A stretch of 42,446 nucleotides of DNA, taken from sequence record MN850581.1; one strand, 5' to 3'. The notes under the pieces were generated by a model, which was not told where the DNA came from, ran no database searches, and worked only from the letters and a program-made list of their open reading frames with translations. This DNA is from Escherichia phage sortkaff. The position numbers and the translations under genes are program-made. Position 1 is the first letter of the stretch; every line of letters starts with the position of its first letter. Shown here piece by piece: positions 2,256 through 22,138 of this stretch.

Positions 2256-2531
2256 TTATTCTTTATCATCACCCCATCGGCCAGGCTTTAGCAGGTTGCC
2301 GCGTCGCCAGTCGTCCCACACGAAGTACGGCCAGAATGCGAGCGTAAGCGCCAGGAAGAAAACGACAATCACCGCCACCAGCGCCGCCGCCAGTGGCACG
2401 AGCGACGAGGGCAGGGTGGCCGCCTCTTTGGCACAGGCGCGCCCCAGGTAGAGGCCAGCGCCCGCCCATATCTCGATCAGCATCCACGCCGCGCCGATCG
2501 CCAGGTAGGAGAAAATCATTTCGTAGAGCAT
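2256..2531 (-). CDS. hypothetical small membrane protein (two predicted TM helices)
   Basis: 91-aa ORF with hydrophobic stretches LAIGAAWMLIEIWAGAGLYL and LAAALVAVIVVFFLALTLAFW; its ATG overlaps the upstream stop (TGATG). Confidence 0.55.
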   Translation of the reverse strand: MLYEMIFSYLAIGAAWMLIEIWAGAGLYLGRACAKEAATLPSSLVPLAAALVAVIVVFFLALTLAFWPYFVWDDWRRGNLLKPGRWGDDKE

Positions 2532-2734
2532 CAGTAGATCCCATTGGTCAGAAGATACAGCCGCCCGTTTCGCATCAGGCGGATCATGTTGCTGGTCCCG
2601 TGGCCCATCGGGACCGGGTACAGGTTGCCATCTGCGGCGCGCATATACAGGCGGTTGCGGACGCGCCAGCCTTGCAGGGTGTGGCCCCGGCGTCCGTACT
2701 CGTCGCGCTTCACGTCCACGATCCGGCAGTACAC
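2531..2734 (-). CDS. hypothetical small protein
   Basis: 67-aa ORF with a GTG start and weak RBS. Confidence 0.3.
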   Translation of the reverse strand: MYCRIVDVKRDEYGRRGHTLQGWRVRNRLYMRAADGNLYPVPMGHGTSNMIRLMRNGRLYLLTNGIY

Positions 2735-2757
2735 CGGAGCCTAGTCAATCTGCATCA

Positions 2758-3138
2758 TCACCACTTCCTCCAGTCGGCAGGGTCGCGCGGGAGCTGCGCC
2801 AGGTCATGGTCCCACTTCGGGGCCTCGTCCGGCTTGCGGTAGCCGTCGTAAAGCATCTGGACCGCCGCGATCGGGTGAGCCGGGAGCGACTCATGGATGT
2901 ACAGATAGAACATGCCGCGCCGTCCCTCGTGGGTGATGCCGAAGCCGCTCCGGGTGTAGGTGTGGAGCGGCTGGTCGCCAGGTGCGGTCGGCATGGTGTC
3001 GGCGAGATACTGGATCGCGCTGGCGTGGAGTGGTGACGGCATCATGATTTGCGGCGTCCCTTCGGTCAGGGTGACGCGCTTGCCATCGTGCGGGCCTCCA
3101 ATCAGGAGCGCCTCGACTAAGTTTGCGGGGTGTTGCAT
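2758..3138 (-). CDS. hypothetical protein
   Basis: 126-aa ORF with RBS GGGAGGA 3 nt before the ATG. Confidence 0.65.
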   Translation of the reverse strand: MQHPANLVEALLIGGPHDGKRVTLTEGTPQIMMPSPLHASAIQYLADTMPTAPGDQPLHTYTRSGFGITHEGRRGMFYLYIHESLPAHPIAAVQMLYDGYRKPDEAPKWDHDLAQLPRDPADWRKW

Positions 3139-3222
3139 GGATCCTCCCAGTCTACGGGGTCGAATGATTAGCGCCTACTTGCGGCCCTCTGGGCTTCCAT
3201 CGTTCGGCGCTGGTGGTATCGG

Positions 3223-3573
3223 TCAGAATGGCGCGCCGTGGGTAGCGCGTAGCTCGTCTGGAGTCAGCGGCAGGCCGACCGGGCCGACTGGCCGCGATGC
3301 CTTGAGCTGGTTCCAGTAGGCAAACGGTCCAGCGTCGCGCCATGAATGATTGTACTTGCCGAAGGACAGGGAGCCGGAGCTGGTGGCCGGGCCATCGTAG
3401 CCGACGCGCTCAAGCTCTGCGAGCGGGACTAACATCAGCGTGTCCAGGGTGTGGACGCCATCGGGATAGCGGTAAACCTCGGCGCGCACGAGGGCAGGGA
3501 AGCGGACACGCTCGAAGCCGCTCCGCCCGTTGTAGCCGTAGGCGTCGGCGTGGAGGATCTCGATCATTTTCAT
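3223..3573 (-). CDS. hypothetical protein
   Basis: 116 aa from ATG-AAA-ATG (MKMIEIL...) within the longer six-frame ORF; purine-rich leader. Confidence 0.55.
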   Translation of the reverse strand: MKMIEILHADAYGYNGRSGFERVRFPALVRAEVYRYPDGVHTLDTLMLVPLAELERVGYDGPATSSGSLSFGKYNHSWRDAGPFAYWNQLKASRPVGPVGLPLTPDELRATHGAPF

Positions 3574-3625
3574 GGTGTTGTCTCTCGTCGGGTGGATGAA
3601 TGCCCCGTTGCCGGGGCGCTGGTGG

Positions 3626-3859
3626 TCAGACGCCGTAACGGTCGGCAAGGAAAGAAAACCAGTTTTCAAGGCTGGCGCGTTGTTTGGCTGAAATGCCGTC
3701 GCCGTAGCGCTCCACCATTTCCGCAAACTTGCCTTTGATTGCTTTGAGGCGTTCAGCGTTCACGAAGTACGGGCCGAATGCGTCAAACGCGAAGCCGGAG
3801 CGGTCGCCCGCGCGGTTAAGAATGTCTTTGATTTGTGCAACGGTGAATTTATTAGCCAT
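3626..3859 (-). CDS. hypothetical small protein
   Basis: 77 aa from MANKFTV...; RBS GGAGAAA 5 nt upstream of the ATG. Confidence 0.65.
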   Translation of the reverse strand: MANKFTVAQIKDILNRAGDRSGFAFDAFGPYFVNAERLKAIKGKFAEMVERYGDGISAKQRASLENWFSFLADRYGV

Positions 3860-3966
3860 TTTCGTTTCTCCTCTGGGGGTCGGCGATGTTGCCGCCCTAT
3901 GTGATATAAGATAAACACTTTCGGGCGGCATGTCCAGAGAAATATCACGAAAAGATTAAATTATTT

Positions 3967-4155
3967 TCAGGCCAGATCGTCGTCCACTCTCCGGCCCAGC
4001 GCTGCCACGTCGTCCTCGGTTGCCGGACGGTAGCCATAACCAGGCCCCAGCTTGCGGGCGATGTGCTGCGCCTGCGCCTGGTTCAGCGTCACGGCGATCA
4101 GATTATTGGCCGCATCGACCACGCAGTGGGCTGCGTTTGCTGCTGCTATGTTCAT
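3967..4155 (-). CDS. hypothetical small protein
   Basis: 62 aa from MNIAAANA...; RBS GAGGTGAG; ATG overlaps the upstream stop (ATGA). Confidence 0.6.
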   Translation of the reverse strand: MNIAAANAAHCVVDAANNLIAVTLNQAQAQHIARKLGPGYGYRPATEDDVAALGRRVDDDLA

Positions 4156-4631: not shown

Positions 4632-5081
4632 GTAACGAAACCGTTACAGCTTGAGAATGTTACACACGATCGCGATTAACAGCGTTAACCCTGCGCCGTA
4701 GACTGCGAAACATATCCAGAGAAATGTCCACGATCCGACGGCTTCCCGGAGTGGTGTTTCCTGCTCCGGCGATGTTCTCCCTCGCGCTTTCCGGGAGGGG
4801 AATTTTATCACGTTAATAGTATGCTCCTTTGCATCACGTTTCAATGATAATTATGTGTGGAAATGGTCGGGGGTTTTGGGGTTTTAACCCCCGGCAAAAT
4901 CCCCGCCGTAACACTCAAAAAATACCCGTTACCGGAATGGCTGTAAGTTACTGAATATCATCGGTAACATTGTCGGTGTAACAGTGTTACCTTTTTGAAA
5001 CTTCGGAGCCACTGGGTAACGGTAACATAAATATATACCCCCTTTAGGGGGTATATGTTATGTAACCCGTGACCGTTACCA
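4632..5081. repeat. cluster of GTAAC/GTTAC iteron-like repeats and palindromes in a roughly 480-bp largely non-coding region
   Basis: About 13 GTAAC/GTTAC pentamers in about 450 bp: palindrome GTAACGAAACCGTTAC (4632-4647), CGGTAACAttgtCGGTGTAACAGTGTTAC (4962-4990), GGTAACGGTAAC (5015-5026), GTAACccgtgaccGTTAC (5062-5079). Also a 10-bp-arm palindrome ATATACCCCC-TTTA-GGGGGTATAT (5033-5056) and hairpin CGGGGGTT/AACCCCCG (4868-4893). Confidence 0.6.
4816..4844 (-). promoter_or_regulatory. sigma70-like promoter (-35 TTGAAA, 17-bp spacer, -10 TACTAT) with CGTGAT in the spacer and again just after the -10
   Basis: Minus-strand reading TTGAAA-CGTGATgcaaaggagca-TACTAT-taaCGTGAT; would drive the downstream early small genes (4611 leftward). 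Confidence 0.4.
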
Positions 5082-5094
5082 GGAAATGTGACCG

Positions 5095-6753
5095 TTAAAA
5101 ATCGTTAAGATCGTCGGCCCCGTCGTCGGCTTTATTGCCCCAGTCAGTCGGGCGCGGATCGTTATCCTTTATCCCACCCAGGAGCGGGATCGCTTCGTTC
5201 ATGGCGGTGAGCGTTTCGTCCCCGGCCATCTTGATCAGGATCTGCTTTTTGGTGGCATGTTCAAAGGCGCGATGGAATTGCATCTTGTCCATCGGGTCGT
5301 CGGTCCCGGTGCGCGCCCAGTCCGATAACATGCCTTTGGTAAGTTTCGGCGTCCGGTAGTTCTTTTCCTTTCGCGTCAGGTTGTACTCGTGGACAAACTG
5401 CGCCAGCCGGAGGGCGTTCTCCTGCGTCCGGCTCACCTTCTGCGCTGCGGCCTTCTCCTCGTCCGCGCCTGCGTCCTGTTTCACCAGCTCCGGCTCGTTG
5501 ATAACGATCAGGGTCGTGTCATTGCTGCCGATGTGCCACGCGGCGGGGCCGTCCTTCCCAGGTGCGGACATGCGCGCCATTGCGTCGCGTTTGGCCTTGA
5601 CCAGCTCCGGCGGGAGTTTAACGGACTTCGTGCGGAATGCGCGCCGCTCCAGCATGGCGGAGCCTTTGGCTTTGGTGTGATCGAATACGAACAAATCGCG
5701 GTCCTTGTGCTTCGAGAGCGTGATCTCAAAGGCGGAGTTAGCCTTGAGGGCAGACGCCCCACGTCCGCCGCGCGTTGCGTCCTTCCCGGAGTGGTGGAGG
5801 ATCACCACGGCACAGTCCAGCGCCTCGGCCAGCTTCTGCGCGTTGGCTAACAGGATCGCCGCCTGGTCGTTGTTGTTCTCGGTGAATGGCTCGCCGCCCA
5901 CCCAGCGCCCCGGCTCGTTGTCCTTCGGTTCGCGCCACTGCTCGCCGATCTTCTGGCCTGCGGAGTTGGCGCTATAGGTATCGATCACGACCAGCGCGGG
6001 CTTGTTGCCCTCCAGCTCGAAGAACGGGGAGGCGTTGAATTTGGCCGCGAATTTCATCAGCTCGCGCTCCCGGTGCAACGGTACGGGCTGCGCGATGATA
6101 AACAGGTTATCAAGCGGCTTGTTTTTGTTCTGGCTGTATACCCAGCCCGCATAGCGCTCTTTCACGCCGTCGGCGTCCTCTGGCGCGAAGTACAGCACGG
6201 AGCCTTTACGGACGGGCAAGCCCCCGAAGTGGTGGCCCTTCGCCACGCAGATAGCCATCTGGAGCGCACAAAACGTTTTCTTTGCCCCGGACTCGCCGAC
6301 CAGGAAGCCCACGGACCGCTCCGGGATCAGGTTCTGGATCACGAAGTTGATAACACGCGGGGCGCTGGCCTCCCGGAGCTTGTCCAGAAATTCGTCCGGC
6401 TGCTCCGCCAGCATGGCCTTAATTTTCGCCAGGTCACGCTCGCGGCGCTCCTCGGTGGTCAGGCTGCGCGGCATCATGGCGGGCTGGTTGTCCTCGTCCA
6501 GTACCATGTCCCACTCGTGATCCGCTTCGTTTGTGCCGAAGTGGTAGAGCTGCACGTCCTCTAACGTCATTCCCTGCTCTGCGGCTGCGTCCTCGTCGAT
6601 CGCCATCTGTCGGGCCAGCTCGTCCTCGCTCATTCCCGGCGAAGTCTCCAGCCATTCCGGCGGCTGCTCCAGAGGCCCGTCGTCTGGGAGGATCTGGTCG
6701 AGTAGCTCCTCTTTGCTCGGCTCCTGCTGGTCGTCTCTTTCGTCTTGGATCAT
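5095..6753 (-). CDS. RepA-like / RecA-fold (AAA_25-like) replication ATPase, putative replicative helicase or initiator
   Basis: 552-aa ORF with a degenerate P-loop VGESGAKKTFCALQMAICVAKG followed by hydrophobic-Asp Walker B (ALVVIDTYS) and an ILHHSGK motif; RBS AAGGAAAG; flanked on both sides by GTAAC repeats. Confidence 0.6.
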   Translation of the reverse strand: MIQDERDDQQEPSKEELLDQILPDDGPLEQPPEWLETSPGMSEDELARQMAIDEDAAAEQGMTLEDVQLYHFGTNEADHEWDMVLDEDNQPAMMPRSLTTEERRERDLAKIKAMLAEQPDEFLDKLREASAPRVINFVIQNLIPERSVGFLVGESGAKKTFCALQMAICVAKGHHFGGLPVRKGSVLYFAPEDADGVKERYAGWVYSQNKNKPLDNLFIIAQPVPLHRERELMKFAAKFNASPFFELEGNKPALVVIDTYSANSAGQKIGEQWREPKDNEPGRWVGGEPFTENNNDQAAILLANAQKLAEALDCAVVILHHSGKDATRGGRGASALKANSAFEITLSKHKDRDLFVFDHTKAKGSAMLERRAFRTKSVKLPPELVKAKRDAMARMSAPGKDGPAAWHIGSNDTTLIVINEPELVKQDAGADEEKAAAQKVSRTQENALRLAQFVHEYNLTRKEKNYRTPKLTKGMLSDWARTGTDDPMDKMQFHRAFEHATKKQILIKMAGDETLTAMNEAIPLLGGIKDNDPRPTDWGNKADDGADDLNDF

Positions 6754-6790
6754 ACTGCTTTCCTTAAATCATGGTAACGTTGTCGGTAAC

Positions 6791-6819
6791 AATGTACCCC
6801 CGACGCGTTACCCGGTCAA
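6791..6819 (-). promoter_or_regulatory. leftward promoter for the RepA-like gene (-35 TTGACC, 17-bp spacer, -10 TACATT)
   Basis: Back-to-back with the rightward promoter. The predicted transcript start falls inside two direct GGTAAC repeats (6773-6778 and 6785-6790, 12-bp period) that sit between promoter and RBS. Confidence 0.4.
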
Positions 6820-6842
6820 CCCGCCGCCAGCAAAGAAAAAAC

Positions 6843-6871
6843 TTTACATCATGGTTTCATTGTTCTAATGT
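6843..6871 (+). promoter_or_regulatory. rightward early promoter (-35 TTTACA, 17-bp spacer, -10 TAATGT) with upstream A-tract
   Basis: TTTACA-tcatggtttcattgttc-TAATGT preceded by caaagaaaaaac; downstream RBS GGAGG 5 nt before the ATG at 6898. Confidence 0.5.
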
Positions 6872-6897
6872 CGATAGCGAACAAACCGGAGGCATTT

Positions 6898-7353
6898 ATG
6901 GACCTGTTCAAAGACGAGCCGCGCGCCCCACTTCGGGCCAACGTGGCGCAACGTAAGACGCCAGCGGAGAGAATGCTGGAGATACTGGAAAAGGTTAAGC
7001 CGTCCGATCTCTCCATTCAGGACGCCATCGATCGCGGTGTACTCGATCCGTTTGGTGTAACGCAGGAAGTCCGGGACGCTTTCGCCCGGTTAAAACCGTC
7101 GGAGCAAATCTTCGCCGCGTTCTGGGGCGTTGCTGGTGTGGACAGTAAGGCATTGCTGGCCCTATGCCGACACGCCGCATTCATGGAGCGCGACGGACTG
7201 CTCCGCGATCTCAAAGTGGACAAGGAGCTGATCGCCTGCCCGGTGTCAGACTCCGACGGACTCGACGACGTGATCCCCCCAGGGGCGCCAGTCGGGCCGG
7301 AATTAGCCGCCGCTGCGTTGCGGTGTAAGCAGGCGTTACGGAGTGAGAAATGA
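6898..7353 (+). CDS. hypothetical protein (first gene of rightward early operon)
   Basis: 151 aa from the second in-frame ATG; the first ATG at 6868 lies inside the predicted -10 hexamer and lacks an RBS. Confidence 0.65.
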   Translation: MDLFKDEPRAPLRANVAQRKTPAERMLEILEKVKPSDLSIQDAIDRGVLDPFGVTQEVRDAFARLKPSEQIFAAFWGVAGVDSKALLALCRHAAFMERDGLLRDLKVDKELIACPVSDSDGLDDVIPPGAPVGPELAAAALRCKQALRSEK

Positions 7354-9487: not shown

Positions 9488-9513
9488 TCAGCGCCTTAAC
9501 ATTCGATCGATAT

Positions 9514-9540
9514 GGAGCCTTTGCGGCTCCATTTTTTTTC
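9514..9540 (+). terminator. rho-independent terminator
   Basis: Stem GGAGCC-tttgc-GGCTCC followed by ATTTTTTTT. Confidence 0.7.
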
Positions 9541-10926: not shown

Positions 10927-10949
10927 GGGGCCTTGCGGCCCCTTTTTTT
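10927..10949 (+). terminator. rho-independent terminator of the lysis operon
   Basis: GGGGCC-ttgc-GGCCCC followed by T7; the T-tract overlaps the stop of the convergent Ig-like gene. Confidence 0.75.
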
Positions 10950-11949
10950 ATGCGGTGACGGTGAGAGCGCAAGCCGTGGAGGTTGCAGTCTTTCCGCCCG
11001 CGTCAGTAACGCGGCAAGTGTAGGATCCTGCGTCGCCAGACGCCGCTCCGGTTTTCGTGAACGTGGCCGACGTTGCGCCGGAAACTGCTACGCCATCCTT
11101 AAGCCACTGATAGGTTAACGGGGCTACGCCGCCGGAAGCCTGCACAGGGCCGATCGAGATATTGCCACCAGTAGCGACGGAGGACGTCGCCGGGGGCTGC
11201 GTCGTAAACGCCGGGAGCGTGTTTAACGTCACGGCGCAAGCCTGAGACGTAACGGAGCCTTGCGGCACGGCGCTGTCCTTCACAATACACGTATACGTCG
11301 CATTGTCCCCGGTCGCGGCGGTTTTGGTATACGTGGCCGCCGTGGCCCCGGCGATGTTTACGCCGTTTTTCTGCCACTGGTAGGAGTACGGCGCGAGGCC
11401 GCCAGCCGCTGCGACGGTCAGCGTCAACGGGTCGCCGATGTAGACGGCTTTAGTCGGCGTCAGGTTGGTAGAGAGGGACAGGGCGACTTTGAGGCGGATC
11501 CGCTGGGAGTCCTTCGTCTGGCCCTGGCTGTCCGTCACGGTCACGTAATAGTCGCCGTTGTTGCTCGCCTGGTAGTTGGCGATCGCATAGCTCGGCGAGT
11601 TGGATCCGACGTTAACAGTCGTCCCGCCGGAGACTTTCTTCCACTGGTAGGACAGCGGAGCGATCCCCCCAGAGGCGGCGACGGTCAGCGTCTGCGTTGC
11701 GCCAGCCGCGACGAAGGTCGATCCGGCATCACCGCCAGCCACGCCGGGGAGGTCCTGCGTAAACACGATCGGAGGTAGCAGGTTCGGATCGTACTCGATG
11801 TAAAACATTTTCGTGGGGTCGAGGTTAGTCGGGTCAGCGTCTAACCAGATAAGATCTTTTTGCGGAGTCGCGCCGCTGGCCGGATCCTCGATCCGGGTGA
11901 CTTTCCAGCCCAGCAAGTCCGGGCGGTAGTAGCGATGCCAGTAACCCAT
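10948..11949 (-). CDS. protein with three tandem bacterial Ig-like domains after a 95-aa N-terminal domain
   Basis: 333 aa; three repeats of about 80 aa each containing P(L/Y)(S/T)YQW(K/Q/L)K and Y(Y/T)(V/C) motifs typical of Ig-like folds; RBS GAGGA; bounded by terminators on both sides. Confidence 0.8.
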   Translation of the reverse strand: MGYWHRYYRPDLLGWKVTRIEDPASGATPQKDLIWLDADPTNLDPTKMFYIEYDPNLLPPIVFTQDLPGVAGGDAGSTFVAAGATQTLTVAASGGIAPLSYQWKKVSGGTTVNVGSNSPSYAIANYQASNNGDYYVTVTDSQGQTKDSQRIRLKVALSLSTNLTPTKAVYIGDPLTLTVAAAGGLAPYSYQWQKNGVNIAGATAATYTKTAATGDNATYTCIVKDSAVPQGSVTSQACAVTLNTLPAFTTQPPATSSVATGGNISIGPVQASGGVAPLTYQWLKDGVAVSGATSATFTKTGAASGDAGSYTCRVTDAGGKTATSTACALTVTA

Positions 11950-12024
11950 AATTTTGTCCTCGTGGTGTGGCCGTGGTATAGTTCCCCGGCATTGTAGATC
12001 ATCTTTGGGCCGTAAACGAAAGGA

Positions 12025-12051
12025 GCCGCTTTTTAAGCGGCCCTTTTTTTT
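12025..12051. terminator. bidirectional hairpin terminator
   Basis: Stem GCCGCT-tttta-AGCGGC. Plus strand: followed by CCTTTTTTTT. Minus strand: hairpin follows the stop of the 33-aa ORF and is followed by a U-rich stretch. Confidence 0.6.
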
Positions 12052-16429: not shown

Positions 16430-16497
16430 GTTGTCCTCCGGTTAATTCTGCATTACTATAAATCACGCTTTAATGATATTACAAGGAATAAAAAGGC

Positions 16498-21910: not shown

Positions 21911-22138
21911 ATGTTGGAGCCTATGATGGCACAGAAACTTAAGCCCGTTTGCCTCGTGAAAGAAGTCCGCGAGGCGAAGGGCGTAAAACAGAAAGATTTA
22001 GCGGACGCGACGGGCATCCTCCAGCAACGTTTAAGCTGCTATGAGAACGGCCACGAGCTGCCGTCTGTAACTAACCTCTGCCGCCTGGCTATGGCGTTGG
22101 ATGTTTCCATTAACGATCTGATCGAGTACGGGGTGTAA
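21911..22138 (+). CDS. XRE-family helix-turn-helix transcriptional regulator (Cro/CI-type)
   Basis: 75-aa ORF; HTH signature QKDLADATGILQQRLSCYENG; most likely start is the ATG at 21926 (GGAG 6 nt upstream). Confidence 0.7.
   Translation: MLEPMMAQKLKPVCLVKEVREAKGVKQKDLADATGILQQRLSCYENGHELPSVTNLCRLAMALDVSINDLIEYGV

Follow-up and report, generated by a model that had tools for sequence, protein, structure and literature searches.

The repA locus and its divergent promoters

The subject of this analysis is the region around the gene repA in the genome of Escherichia phage sortkaff (sequence record MN850581.1), a stretch of 42,446 nucleotides that we refer to, at its full length, as the window, and in particular a set of short GGTAAC repeats that lie on both sides of this gene. 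By megablast the whole stretch is a Sortsnevirus genome, with 97% identity over 4 kb to Klebsiella phage vB_KpnS_IME279 (42.5 kb; IME279 below), and the same search gave more distant relatives in Kosakonia phage Kc237, Escherichia phage Sortsne and the Murrayvirus phages IME_EC2, sortsyn, sortregn, Lumpael and ST231. repA (5095-6753, minus strand) encodes an RSF1010 RepA-type AAA_25 helicase of 552 residues, acidic at its N-terminus and extended by an extra domain at the C-terminus; its ATG is at 6753 on the minus strand, preceded by a ribosome-binding site (RBS), AAGGAAAG, at 6765-6758. The first rightward gene, gp02 (6898-7353, plus strand), encodes a 151-residue protein of unknown function and begins with an ATG at 6898, with its RBS, GGAGG, at 6888-6892. 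Positions 6754-6897 are exactly the 144-bp intergenic gap between these two genes, just as an earlier reading made from the letters of the window (the sequence-only reading) had delimited it. The order of the surrounding genes was taken from the IME279 record: leftward of repA lie small genes and then the entire packaging, head and tail block, and rightward of the gap the lysis cassette follows after seven small genes of unknown function.

The sequence-only reading had placed back-to-back sigma70-type promoters in this gap, and such a divergent pair, with -35 and -10 hexamers at 17-bp spacing on each strand, is present. The leftward (repA) promoter, which consists of a -35 hexamer TTGACC at 6814-6819 and a -10 hexamer TACATT at 6791-6796 on the minus strand, was confirmed by a promoter scan with a score of 9/12, a quality that is reached in this genome at 0.28 sites per kb per strand. 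Counted from the -10 hexamer (6796-6791), and thus by spacing only, the transcript is predicted to start at about 6783-6784, which falls between two direct copies of GGTAAC, as had been claimed. TTGAC is kept in the Sortsnevirus relatives, several Murrayvirus-like relatives have TTTACA instead at an equivalent 17-bp spacing, and the -10 hexamer, read from the sequences, keeps the form TACANT (TACACT, TACAAT, TAACAT). A leftward -35/-10 pair at 17-bp spacing (TTGACS or TTTACA) is readable by eye in all 11 phages compared for this feature, three of which have -10 hexamers that match at only 3/6 positions. A second leftward site matched by the scan, TTACCA-17-TATGAT (6777-6749), was rejected as spurious; it overlaps the repA start codon, and its transcript would begin within the gene.

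The rightward promoter was found where it had been described, with its -35 hexamer TTTACA at 6843-6848, its -10 hexamer TAATGT at 6866-6871 (plus strand; a 3/6 match) and an A-tract upstream, but it scores only 8/12 and falls under the scan threshold; spacing predicts a start at about 6878. Because sites of 8/12 quality occur in this genome at 1.4 per kb per strand, this promoter taken alone could be a product of chance. It is nevertheless credible because it is conserved in the relatives: its -35 block, CTTTACATCA, is invariant in an alignment of six phages and can be found by eye in the sequence of every other relative, and sortregn and Lumpael have a better -10 hexamer, TAATAT. The two -35 hexamers are separated by 23 bp rather than the 24 bp given earlier, and between them lies an A/T tract, AAAGAAAAAAC (6832-6842), which is partly conserved in the relatives and may act as an UP-like element for both promoters. 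A search of the whole window against Rfam at gathering threshold, the leader and the gap included, returned no match to an RNA element.

GGTAAC repeats flanking repA

The two direct GGTAAC repeats of the sequence-only reading are indeed present, and they overlie the leftward promoter's core and its leader; the count given there fell short, however, since the gap really holds three exact copies and one degenerate copy, and a larger cluster lies elsewhere. The first copy (S1, 6773-6778, plus strand) covers approximately +6 to +11 of the repA transcript, and the second (S2, 6785-6790, plus strand) abuts the -10 hexamer at approximately -1 to -6. The third is inverted (S3, 6807-6812, minus strand) and sits in the spacer of the leftward promoter, beside its -35 hexamer, while the degenerate copy, GGTTTC (S4, 6853-6858, plus strand), sits in the spacer of the rightward promoter, within a 20-nt direct repeat (6764-6783 and 6844-6863, 80% identity). 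Three iteron copies share an ATCAT extension, namely ATCATGGTAAC (6768-6778), ATCATGGTTTC (6848-6858) and ATCATCGGTAAC (4957-4968), and the relatives carry the same CATGAT or CGTGAT flank by the iteron; this extension may belong to a longer version of the site or mark a second recognition element next to it.

The larger cluster lies in a 250-bp non-coding stretch (4845-5094) immediately 3′ of repA, which has a GC content of 44% against 59% for the genome and whose equivalent in the IME279 record carries no annotated feature. Within it, positions 4905-5094 hold six exact GGTAAC copies (4928-5080) and seven copies with one mismatch. At the center of this cluster is a palindrome, AATATATACCCCCT/AGGGGGTATATGTT (5030-5059), with AT-rich shoulders and with oppositely oriented iterons on its flanks: copies at 5015 and 5021 on the plus strand are opposed to copies at 5062, 5069, 5075 and 5088 on the minus strand, and more copies lie at 4907-4991. 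The same palindrome scores as a minus-strand terminator-like hairpin for repA (5056-5033), and an equivalent hairpin with a G/C stem is present in every relative. From this layout, the cluster that follows repA is probably the replication origin. A DnaA-dependent origin was considered and rejected, as no TTATCCACA-like box, allowing up to one mismatch, occurs in either repeat region. The same non-coding stretch also has a second, G-rich hairpin at 4859-4902. Adjacent to it, at 4816-4844 on the minus strand, is a promoter-like TTGAAA-17-TACTAT ahead of the next leftward genes; the ATCATTGA block around its -35 position is found again in most relatives, and in some (the relatives designated P0011 and P0012) an iteron copy lies directly upstream of the corresponding promoter-like site.

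Across the genome there are 25 copies of GGTAAC where 12.5 are expected, and nine of these fall in the 394 bp of the two non-coding stretches that flank repA, against 0.18 expected there; not one of 20,000 composition-matched shuffles reached nine. An unbiased k-mer test of the two stretches returned GGTAAC as the most enriched 6-mer (9 versus 0.15 expected, P about 1e-13), and the other 16 copies are close to the chance expectation of about 12.5 for the whole genome. It could still be argued that the repeats have no function and are either a compositional accident of AT-richer non-coding DNA, both regions having 44-46% GC against 59% for the genome, or the relics of a duplication. A short segment is in fact duplicated between the two regions: ATCATGGTAACGTTGTCGGTAACAATGTACC (6768-6798), a promoter-region segment of about 32 bp, is closely similar to 4957-4991 of the downstream cluster. 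The shuffles speak against such an account, and so does the comparison with related phages.

Coordinated change of the repeats and their candidate reader

For this comparison, the gap upstream of repA and the region that follows the gene were taken from 14 related phages. The comparison set was made up of the window, IME279, Kc237, Sortsne, sortregn, Lumpael, sortsyn, IME_EC2 and ST231, together with five metagenomic or GenBank contigs, picked so that every cluster of the RepA C-terminal domain had a representative, and three IMG/VR loci; a scan of IMG/VR for relatives gave seven loci, three of them new. In the literature on these phages we found genome descriptions only, and no promoter or origin analysis. 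The architecture is the same in every phage compared, as is the layout of the downstream cluster, and the repeat itself varies between phages, always matching across both regions of one phage. It is GGTAAC in the window, IME279, Kc237, sortregn, Lumpael and the relative L018, GGTTWC or GGTWWC in L019 and Sortsne, GTTAAC in sortsyn and IME_EC2, and ATAACAT in ST231; the remaining relatives have GCGTTAA (P0005), GGTTAC(A) (P0006, P0011 and L021), AGTAACA (P0007) or CGTTACA (P0012).

This change can be followed site by site. L019 has a RepA that is 85% identical to that of the window and a promoter that is nearly base-for-base equal, and it carries GGTTAC, GGTTTC and GAAACC at the positions where the window has GGTAAC (S1), GGTAAC (S2) and GTTACC (S3), with GGTTWC in its downstream cluster. 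The equivalent of S2 in Sortsne is likewise GGTTTC. At the position of S4, the sequence is GGTAAC in sortregn, ATAAC in ST231 and GGTTAC in P0011, in each case the motif of that phage; such agreement is seen in five or more relatives (ST231, sortregn, Lumpael, P0011 and L019), and the others have a variant with one or two mismatches. Coordinated, site-by-site change within a fixed frame is a signature of sites for a binder that, to judge from this pattern, would be encoded by the phage and would have shifted its specificity. Across 14 phages the motif changes in concert in both regions and the promoter bases around it remain constant, so that the view that the repeats are without function is effectively refuted, and we give it next to no weight.

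Several proteins were considered as the reader of the repeats. Sortsne, sortsyn and sortregn differ in their motifs although E. coli K-12 MG1655 was the isolation host of all three, which makes a host factor unlikely. gp02 shows even conservation between sortsyn and ST231, phages with different repeats, and so is not the specificity determinant; the gene next downstream of repA is also conserved between these two phages. gp04 was rejected too, as the proteins of the window and Kc237, which have the same motif, are 54% identical, and those of sortregn and sortsyn, with different motifs, are 71% identical. The window further encodes a Cro/CI-type helix-turn-helix (HTH) protein of 75 residues (21911-22138, plus strand; HTH_3, E=2e-13), which is called 'transcriptional repressor' in IME279; it is 86% identical between sortsyn and ST231, and in our reading of the alignment its putative recognition helix is nearly unchanged (one A-to-P substitution), so it was rejected as well. 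This Cro-like repressor is found in a phage for which the IME279 record has no integrase annotated. 

The comparison of sortsyn with ST231 directs attention to RepA itself. From the N-terminus to the end of the ATPase domain their RepA proteins share 96-100% identity (96% for the ATPase domain), which drops to 32-49% over alignment columns 441-520 (41% for the C-domain coding region), and at the level of the repA locus the divergence is confined to the upstream gap, the segment that codes for the C-terminal domain and the downstream gap, with about 1.3 kb of conserved sequence between. Within this locus, the C-terminal domain of RepA is the sole protein segment that diverges along with both repeat clusters. 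Linkage could account for the joint movement of the C-terminal domain and the adjacent origin; it cannot account for the parallel change of the promoter sites, which lie beyond the conserved ATPase-coding DNA. The change of the repeat thus appears to track the fast-diverging C-terminal domain, a predicted winged helix, although this is a correlation only. RepA is, on these comparisons, most likely the binder of the iterons.

The repeats might instead be operators for another phage regulator, either a small protein or the Cro-like HTH protein, that controls early transcription and also a promoter or terminator region after repA, in which case RepA would be merely a helicase. The genome does encode the HTH_3 protein and many small proteins of unknown function, and many genes differ between sortsyn and ST231. 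Yet the HTH protein is near-constant, conservation extends to gp02 and the gene that follows repA, gp04 does not follow the motif, and in the repA locus nothing but the RepA C-terminal domain diverges with both clusters; the odds on such a regulator are, in our judgment, long.

What kind of protein RepA is bears on a further claim of the sequence-only reading, which had called it a RepA-like initiator. Its ATPase domain matches Pfam AAA_25 (E=1.2e-24), its closest solved structure is the hexameric helicase RepA of RSF1010 (PDB 1g8y, E=2.8e-5), and its PHROG matches are the helicase parts of primase-helicases (helicase/primase families). On account of these matches, it is not an iteron-binding initiator of the plasmid RepA type; Pfam gives AAA_25 only, and a WH1-WH2 (Rep_3) domain was not found. 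To this helicase is joined the C-terminal domain that resembles a DNA-binding domain: residues 440-520 or thereabouts (5194-5436, minus strand) are predicted to form a winged helix and are the candidate iteron reader. In the predicted third helix of this domain the sequence RAFxHAT is invariant, and the variable residues that precede it, at the helix start (KMQFHR in the window), group roughly by motif: DKxQFxRAF goes with GGTAAC, RTDFFHAF with TTAAC-type repeats and xMKxTRAF with (A/G)TAACA. This link between third-helix residues and iteron motif is suggestive only. 

Some observations on the RepA homologues may be added. The acidic region of residues 1-125 (6379-6753, minus strand) is highly variable between genera (10-45% identical) and conserved within them, and this variable N-terminus parallels the uncharacterised N-terminal domain of the Rep proteins of Staphylococcus aureus pathogenicity islands (SaPIs). 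At 2433-4120 of IME_EC2, the RepA homologue is split into a 515-residue 'DNA primase' and a 47-residue open reading frame, where the homologue of sortsyn is one open reading frame of 562 residues; the split is likely a frameshift or an annotation artefact. The family names 'primase' and 'cobalt-zinc-cadmium resistance' look wrong for these homologues.

Taken literally, the sequence-only reading amounts to a plasmid-type RepA (Rep_3/WH1-WH2) that represses its own gene by way of two direct repeats in the leader, at a single master region for early control. The promoter and the repeats are at the place it named, and the IME279 record has the note 'RepA'. The protein, however, is an AAA_25 helicase with no Rep_3-type domain, the gap has three to four sites and there is a further cluster outside it, and the genome has a second divergent gap, so that we regard this literal version as very improbable. 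The claim of a master early control region is unproven in particular because of that second divergent promoter region, and repA appears to end at its own terminator-like hairpin. The second pair of divergent operons starts from a 68-bp gap at about 16430-16497, with primase, methylases and RusA in its leftward arm and a DEAD-box helicase, an exonuclease, Erf, SSB and the Cro-like HTH protein in its rightward arm. Between the primase operon on the minus strand and the helicase-recombination operon on the plus strand, this gap also has back-to-back promoters (TTGTAA-18-TATAGT on the minus strand), and it contains no GGTAAC copies; it is a rival for the part of early control region.

Elsewhere in the genome, a strong terminator-like hairpin lies at 9512-9532 (plus strand), between the small rightward genes and the holin/endolysin/spanin cassette, and another, bidirectional in appearance, at 12023-12043 (both strands). 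A 333-residue tail protein with tandem Ig-like repeats, in which the motif 'APLSYQW.K' recurs, is encoded at 10948-11949 (minus strand); its gene is set apart from the main structural block, with the lysis cassette on one side and the methylase/primase operon on the other.

A candidate self-loading initiator-helicase

We propose that RepA is a self-loading initiator-helicase that works like SaPI Rep, and that its origin iterons also occupy its own promoter, probably for autorepression; we would put the probability of this reading at about 0.55. In such a scheme, the leftward promoter would be used by the host RNA polymerase with a sigma70-type factor to give a repA transcript that apparently extends up to the hairpin at 5056-5033, and the rightward promoter would give transcripts of the seven small early-type genes up to the terminator-like site at 9512-9532. 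The C-terminal winged helix of RepA would read the hexanucleotide iterons 3′ of the gene, and RepA would load itself at the origin. Once accumulated, RepA on S1-S3, that is, at the -35 flank, the -10 hexamer and +6, would exclude RNA polymerase and so lower repA transcription. It may also reduce rightward early transcription, an effect that is likely weaker in the window because S4 is degenerate there. What the analysis shows are the sequence elements, their enrichment, their conservation and their co-variation with the C-terminal domain of RepA; that RepA is the binder, that its binding represses and that the downstream cluster is the origin are steps that we infer.

Several points weigh against this proposal. 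Identity in the C-terminal domain does not correspond one-to-one with the motif: the window and sortregn share GGTAAC with domains that are 50% identical, and the domains of sortsyn and P0006 are 66% identical with motifs that differ. Neither the orientation of the sites nor their exact positions within the promoter are conserved between genera, and the match of the rightward promoter to the consensus is weak (8/12). The model of the C-terminal domain, built from 21 sequences, is of moderate confidence, and the domain gave no significant Foldseek match, no Pfam family and no PDB sequence match. The many other genes that differ between sortsyn and ST231 leave room for another binder. A lytic phage has no obvious need of tight autoregulation.

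The iterons near the promoter could also be a second replication element rather than an operator, as part of a bipartite origin or as an enhancer like P4 crr or the incC origin of P1. RepA bound there would then act together with the cluster 1.7 kb away, by cooperation or looping, or else the origin would be activated by transcription nearby, and any effect on repA transcription would be secondary. Such an arrangement would fit the presence of iteron clusters on both sides of repA, the resemblance of the 32-bp promoter segment to part of the downstream cluster and the A/T tract that adjoins the promoter sites. Set against this, the gap has only three to four sites where the downstream cluster has 13, and in every relative sites lie precisely on the -35, the -10 and +1 even though individual sites turn over; we consider a purely replicative role unlikely. 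The two roles are not mutually exclusive, and RepA is the binder in both. A bolder version would make the two clusters one device, in which RepA hexamers pair or loop across the 1.7-kb repA gene and the firing of the origin shuts both early promoters. This we think distinctly doubtful. If it were true, it would be an early-to-late switch coupled to replication and built from an SF4-type self-loading helicase, and the iteron and winged-helix specificities, at least seven in number, would be incompatibility or anti-cross-talk groups among co-infecting phages.

The proposed arrangement can be set beside several known systems. In iteron plasmids (P1 RepA with incC/incA, F RepE, pSC101 RepA and R6K pi), repeats for the initiator overlap its own promoter and bring about autorepression; in P1 and F, the rep promoter lies within the origin iterons, and there is another iteron cluster downstream of rep. 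The phage locus resembles these in that the repeats of the putative origin, 13 exact or near copies downstream, recur on the repA promoter (three exact). The plasmid initiators, however, are WH1-WH2 proteins of the Rep_3 type that have no helicase activity and recruit host DnaB, and their iterons are 19-22 bp long and serve copy-number control, whereas phage RepA is not of the Rep_3 type and copy-number logic is not obviously needed by a lytic phage. RSF1010 RepA has no sequence-specific DNA-binding domain and leaves the reading of the iterons to a separate protein, RepC; the phage protein differs from it by about 125 additional N-terminal and about 150 additional C-terminal residues. The alpha protein of P4 unites helicase and C-terminal origin binding in one polypeptide and binds short iterons in both ori and crr; it also carries a primase, its motor is of the SF3 type, and crr does not lie on the alpha promoter. 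Phage RepA would be like alpha in being one polypeptide with two iteron clusters, and it has no sequence similarity to it. In lambdoid phages, the DNA-binding domain of O and the iterons co-vary as a unit, the iterons of lambda are located within O, whose product is not a helicase; the present phages differ in having a second, unlinked set of iterons on a promoter that co-varies too.

The closest functional analogue is the Rep/ori system of the SaPIs, for which PMC9371898 summarises the work of Ubeda et al. (2007 and 2012). SaPI Rep combines a helicase with a C-terminal winged helix and is self-loading at 6-12 penta- or hexanucleotide iterons that lie directly downstream of rep, on both sides of an AT-rich center and in opposite directions, with a specificity that differs between related elements (PMC9371898). 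Its motor has been placed with the AAA+ SF3 and MCM (SF6) helicase groups (PMC9371898). Phage RepA likewise has the ATPase of a hexameric helicase and hexanucleotide iterons 3′ of its gene that are opposed around a center, and its C-terminal domain is predicted to be a winged helix. The motor is different, being a RecA-fold AAA_25 domain and not AAA+ SF3 or MCM, and no SaPI Rep chain was among the PDB sequence matches of either the full RepA or the C-domain profile. Moreover, the center of the phage cluster is a G/C-stem hairpin with AT-rich shoulders and not a plain AT-rich block, the phage has an extra set of iterons on the repA promoter, and the host element is a virulent-type podophage and not a satellite. 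By analogy, then, phage RepA may work like SaPI Rep without belonging to that family.

The control design suggested here would be a known one that has not previously been described for these phages. It also corrects a trap in the naming, since 'RepA' here denotes a helicase of the RSF1010 type and not a plasmid iteron-binding initiator. With it, the Sortsnevirus and Murrayvirus podophages, known so far from genome reports only, gain a testable module for replication and early control that comprises a candidate origin, a candidate self-loading initiator-helicase and operator-like sites on divergent early promoters. The natural variants of the iteron, of which there are at least seven, and a predicted winged helix of about 75 residues on a near-constant motor may offer a system for studying how the specificity of initiators evolves.

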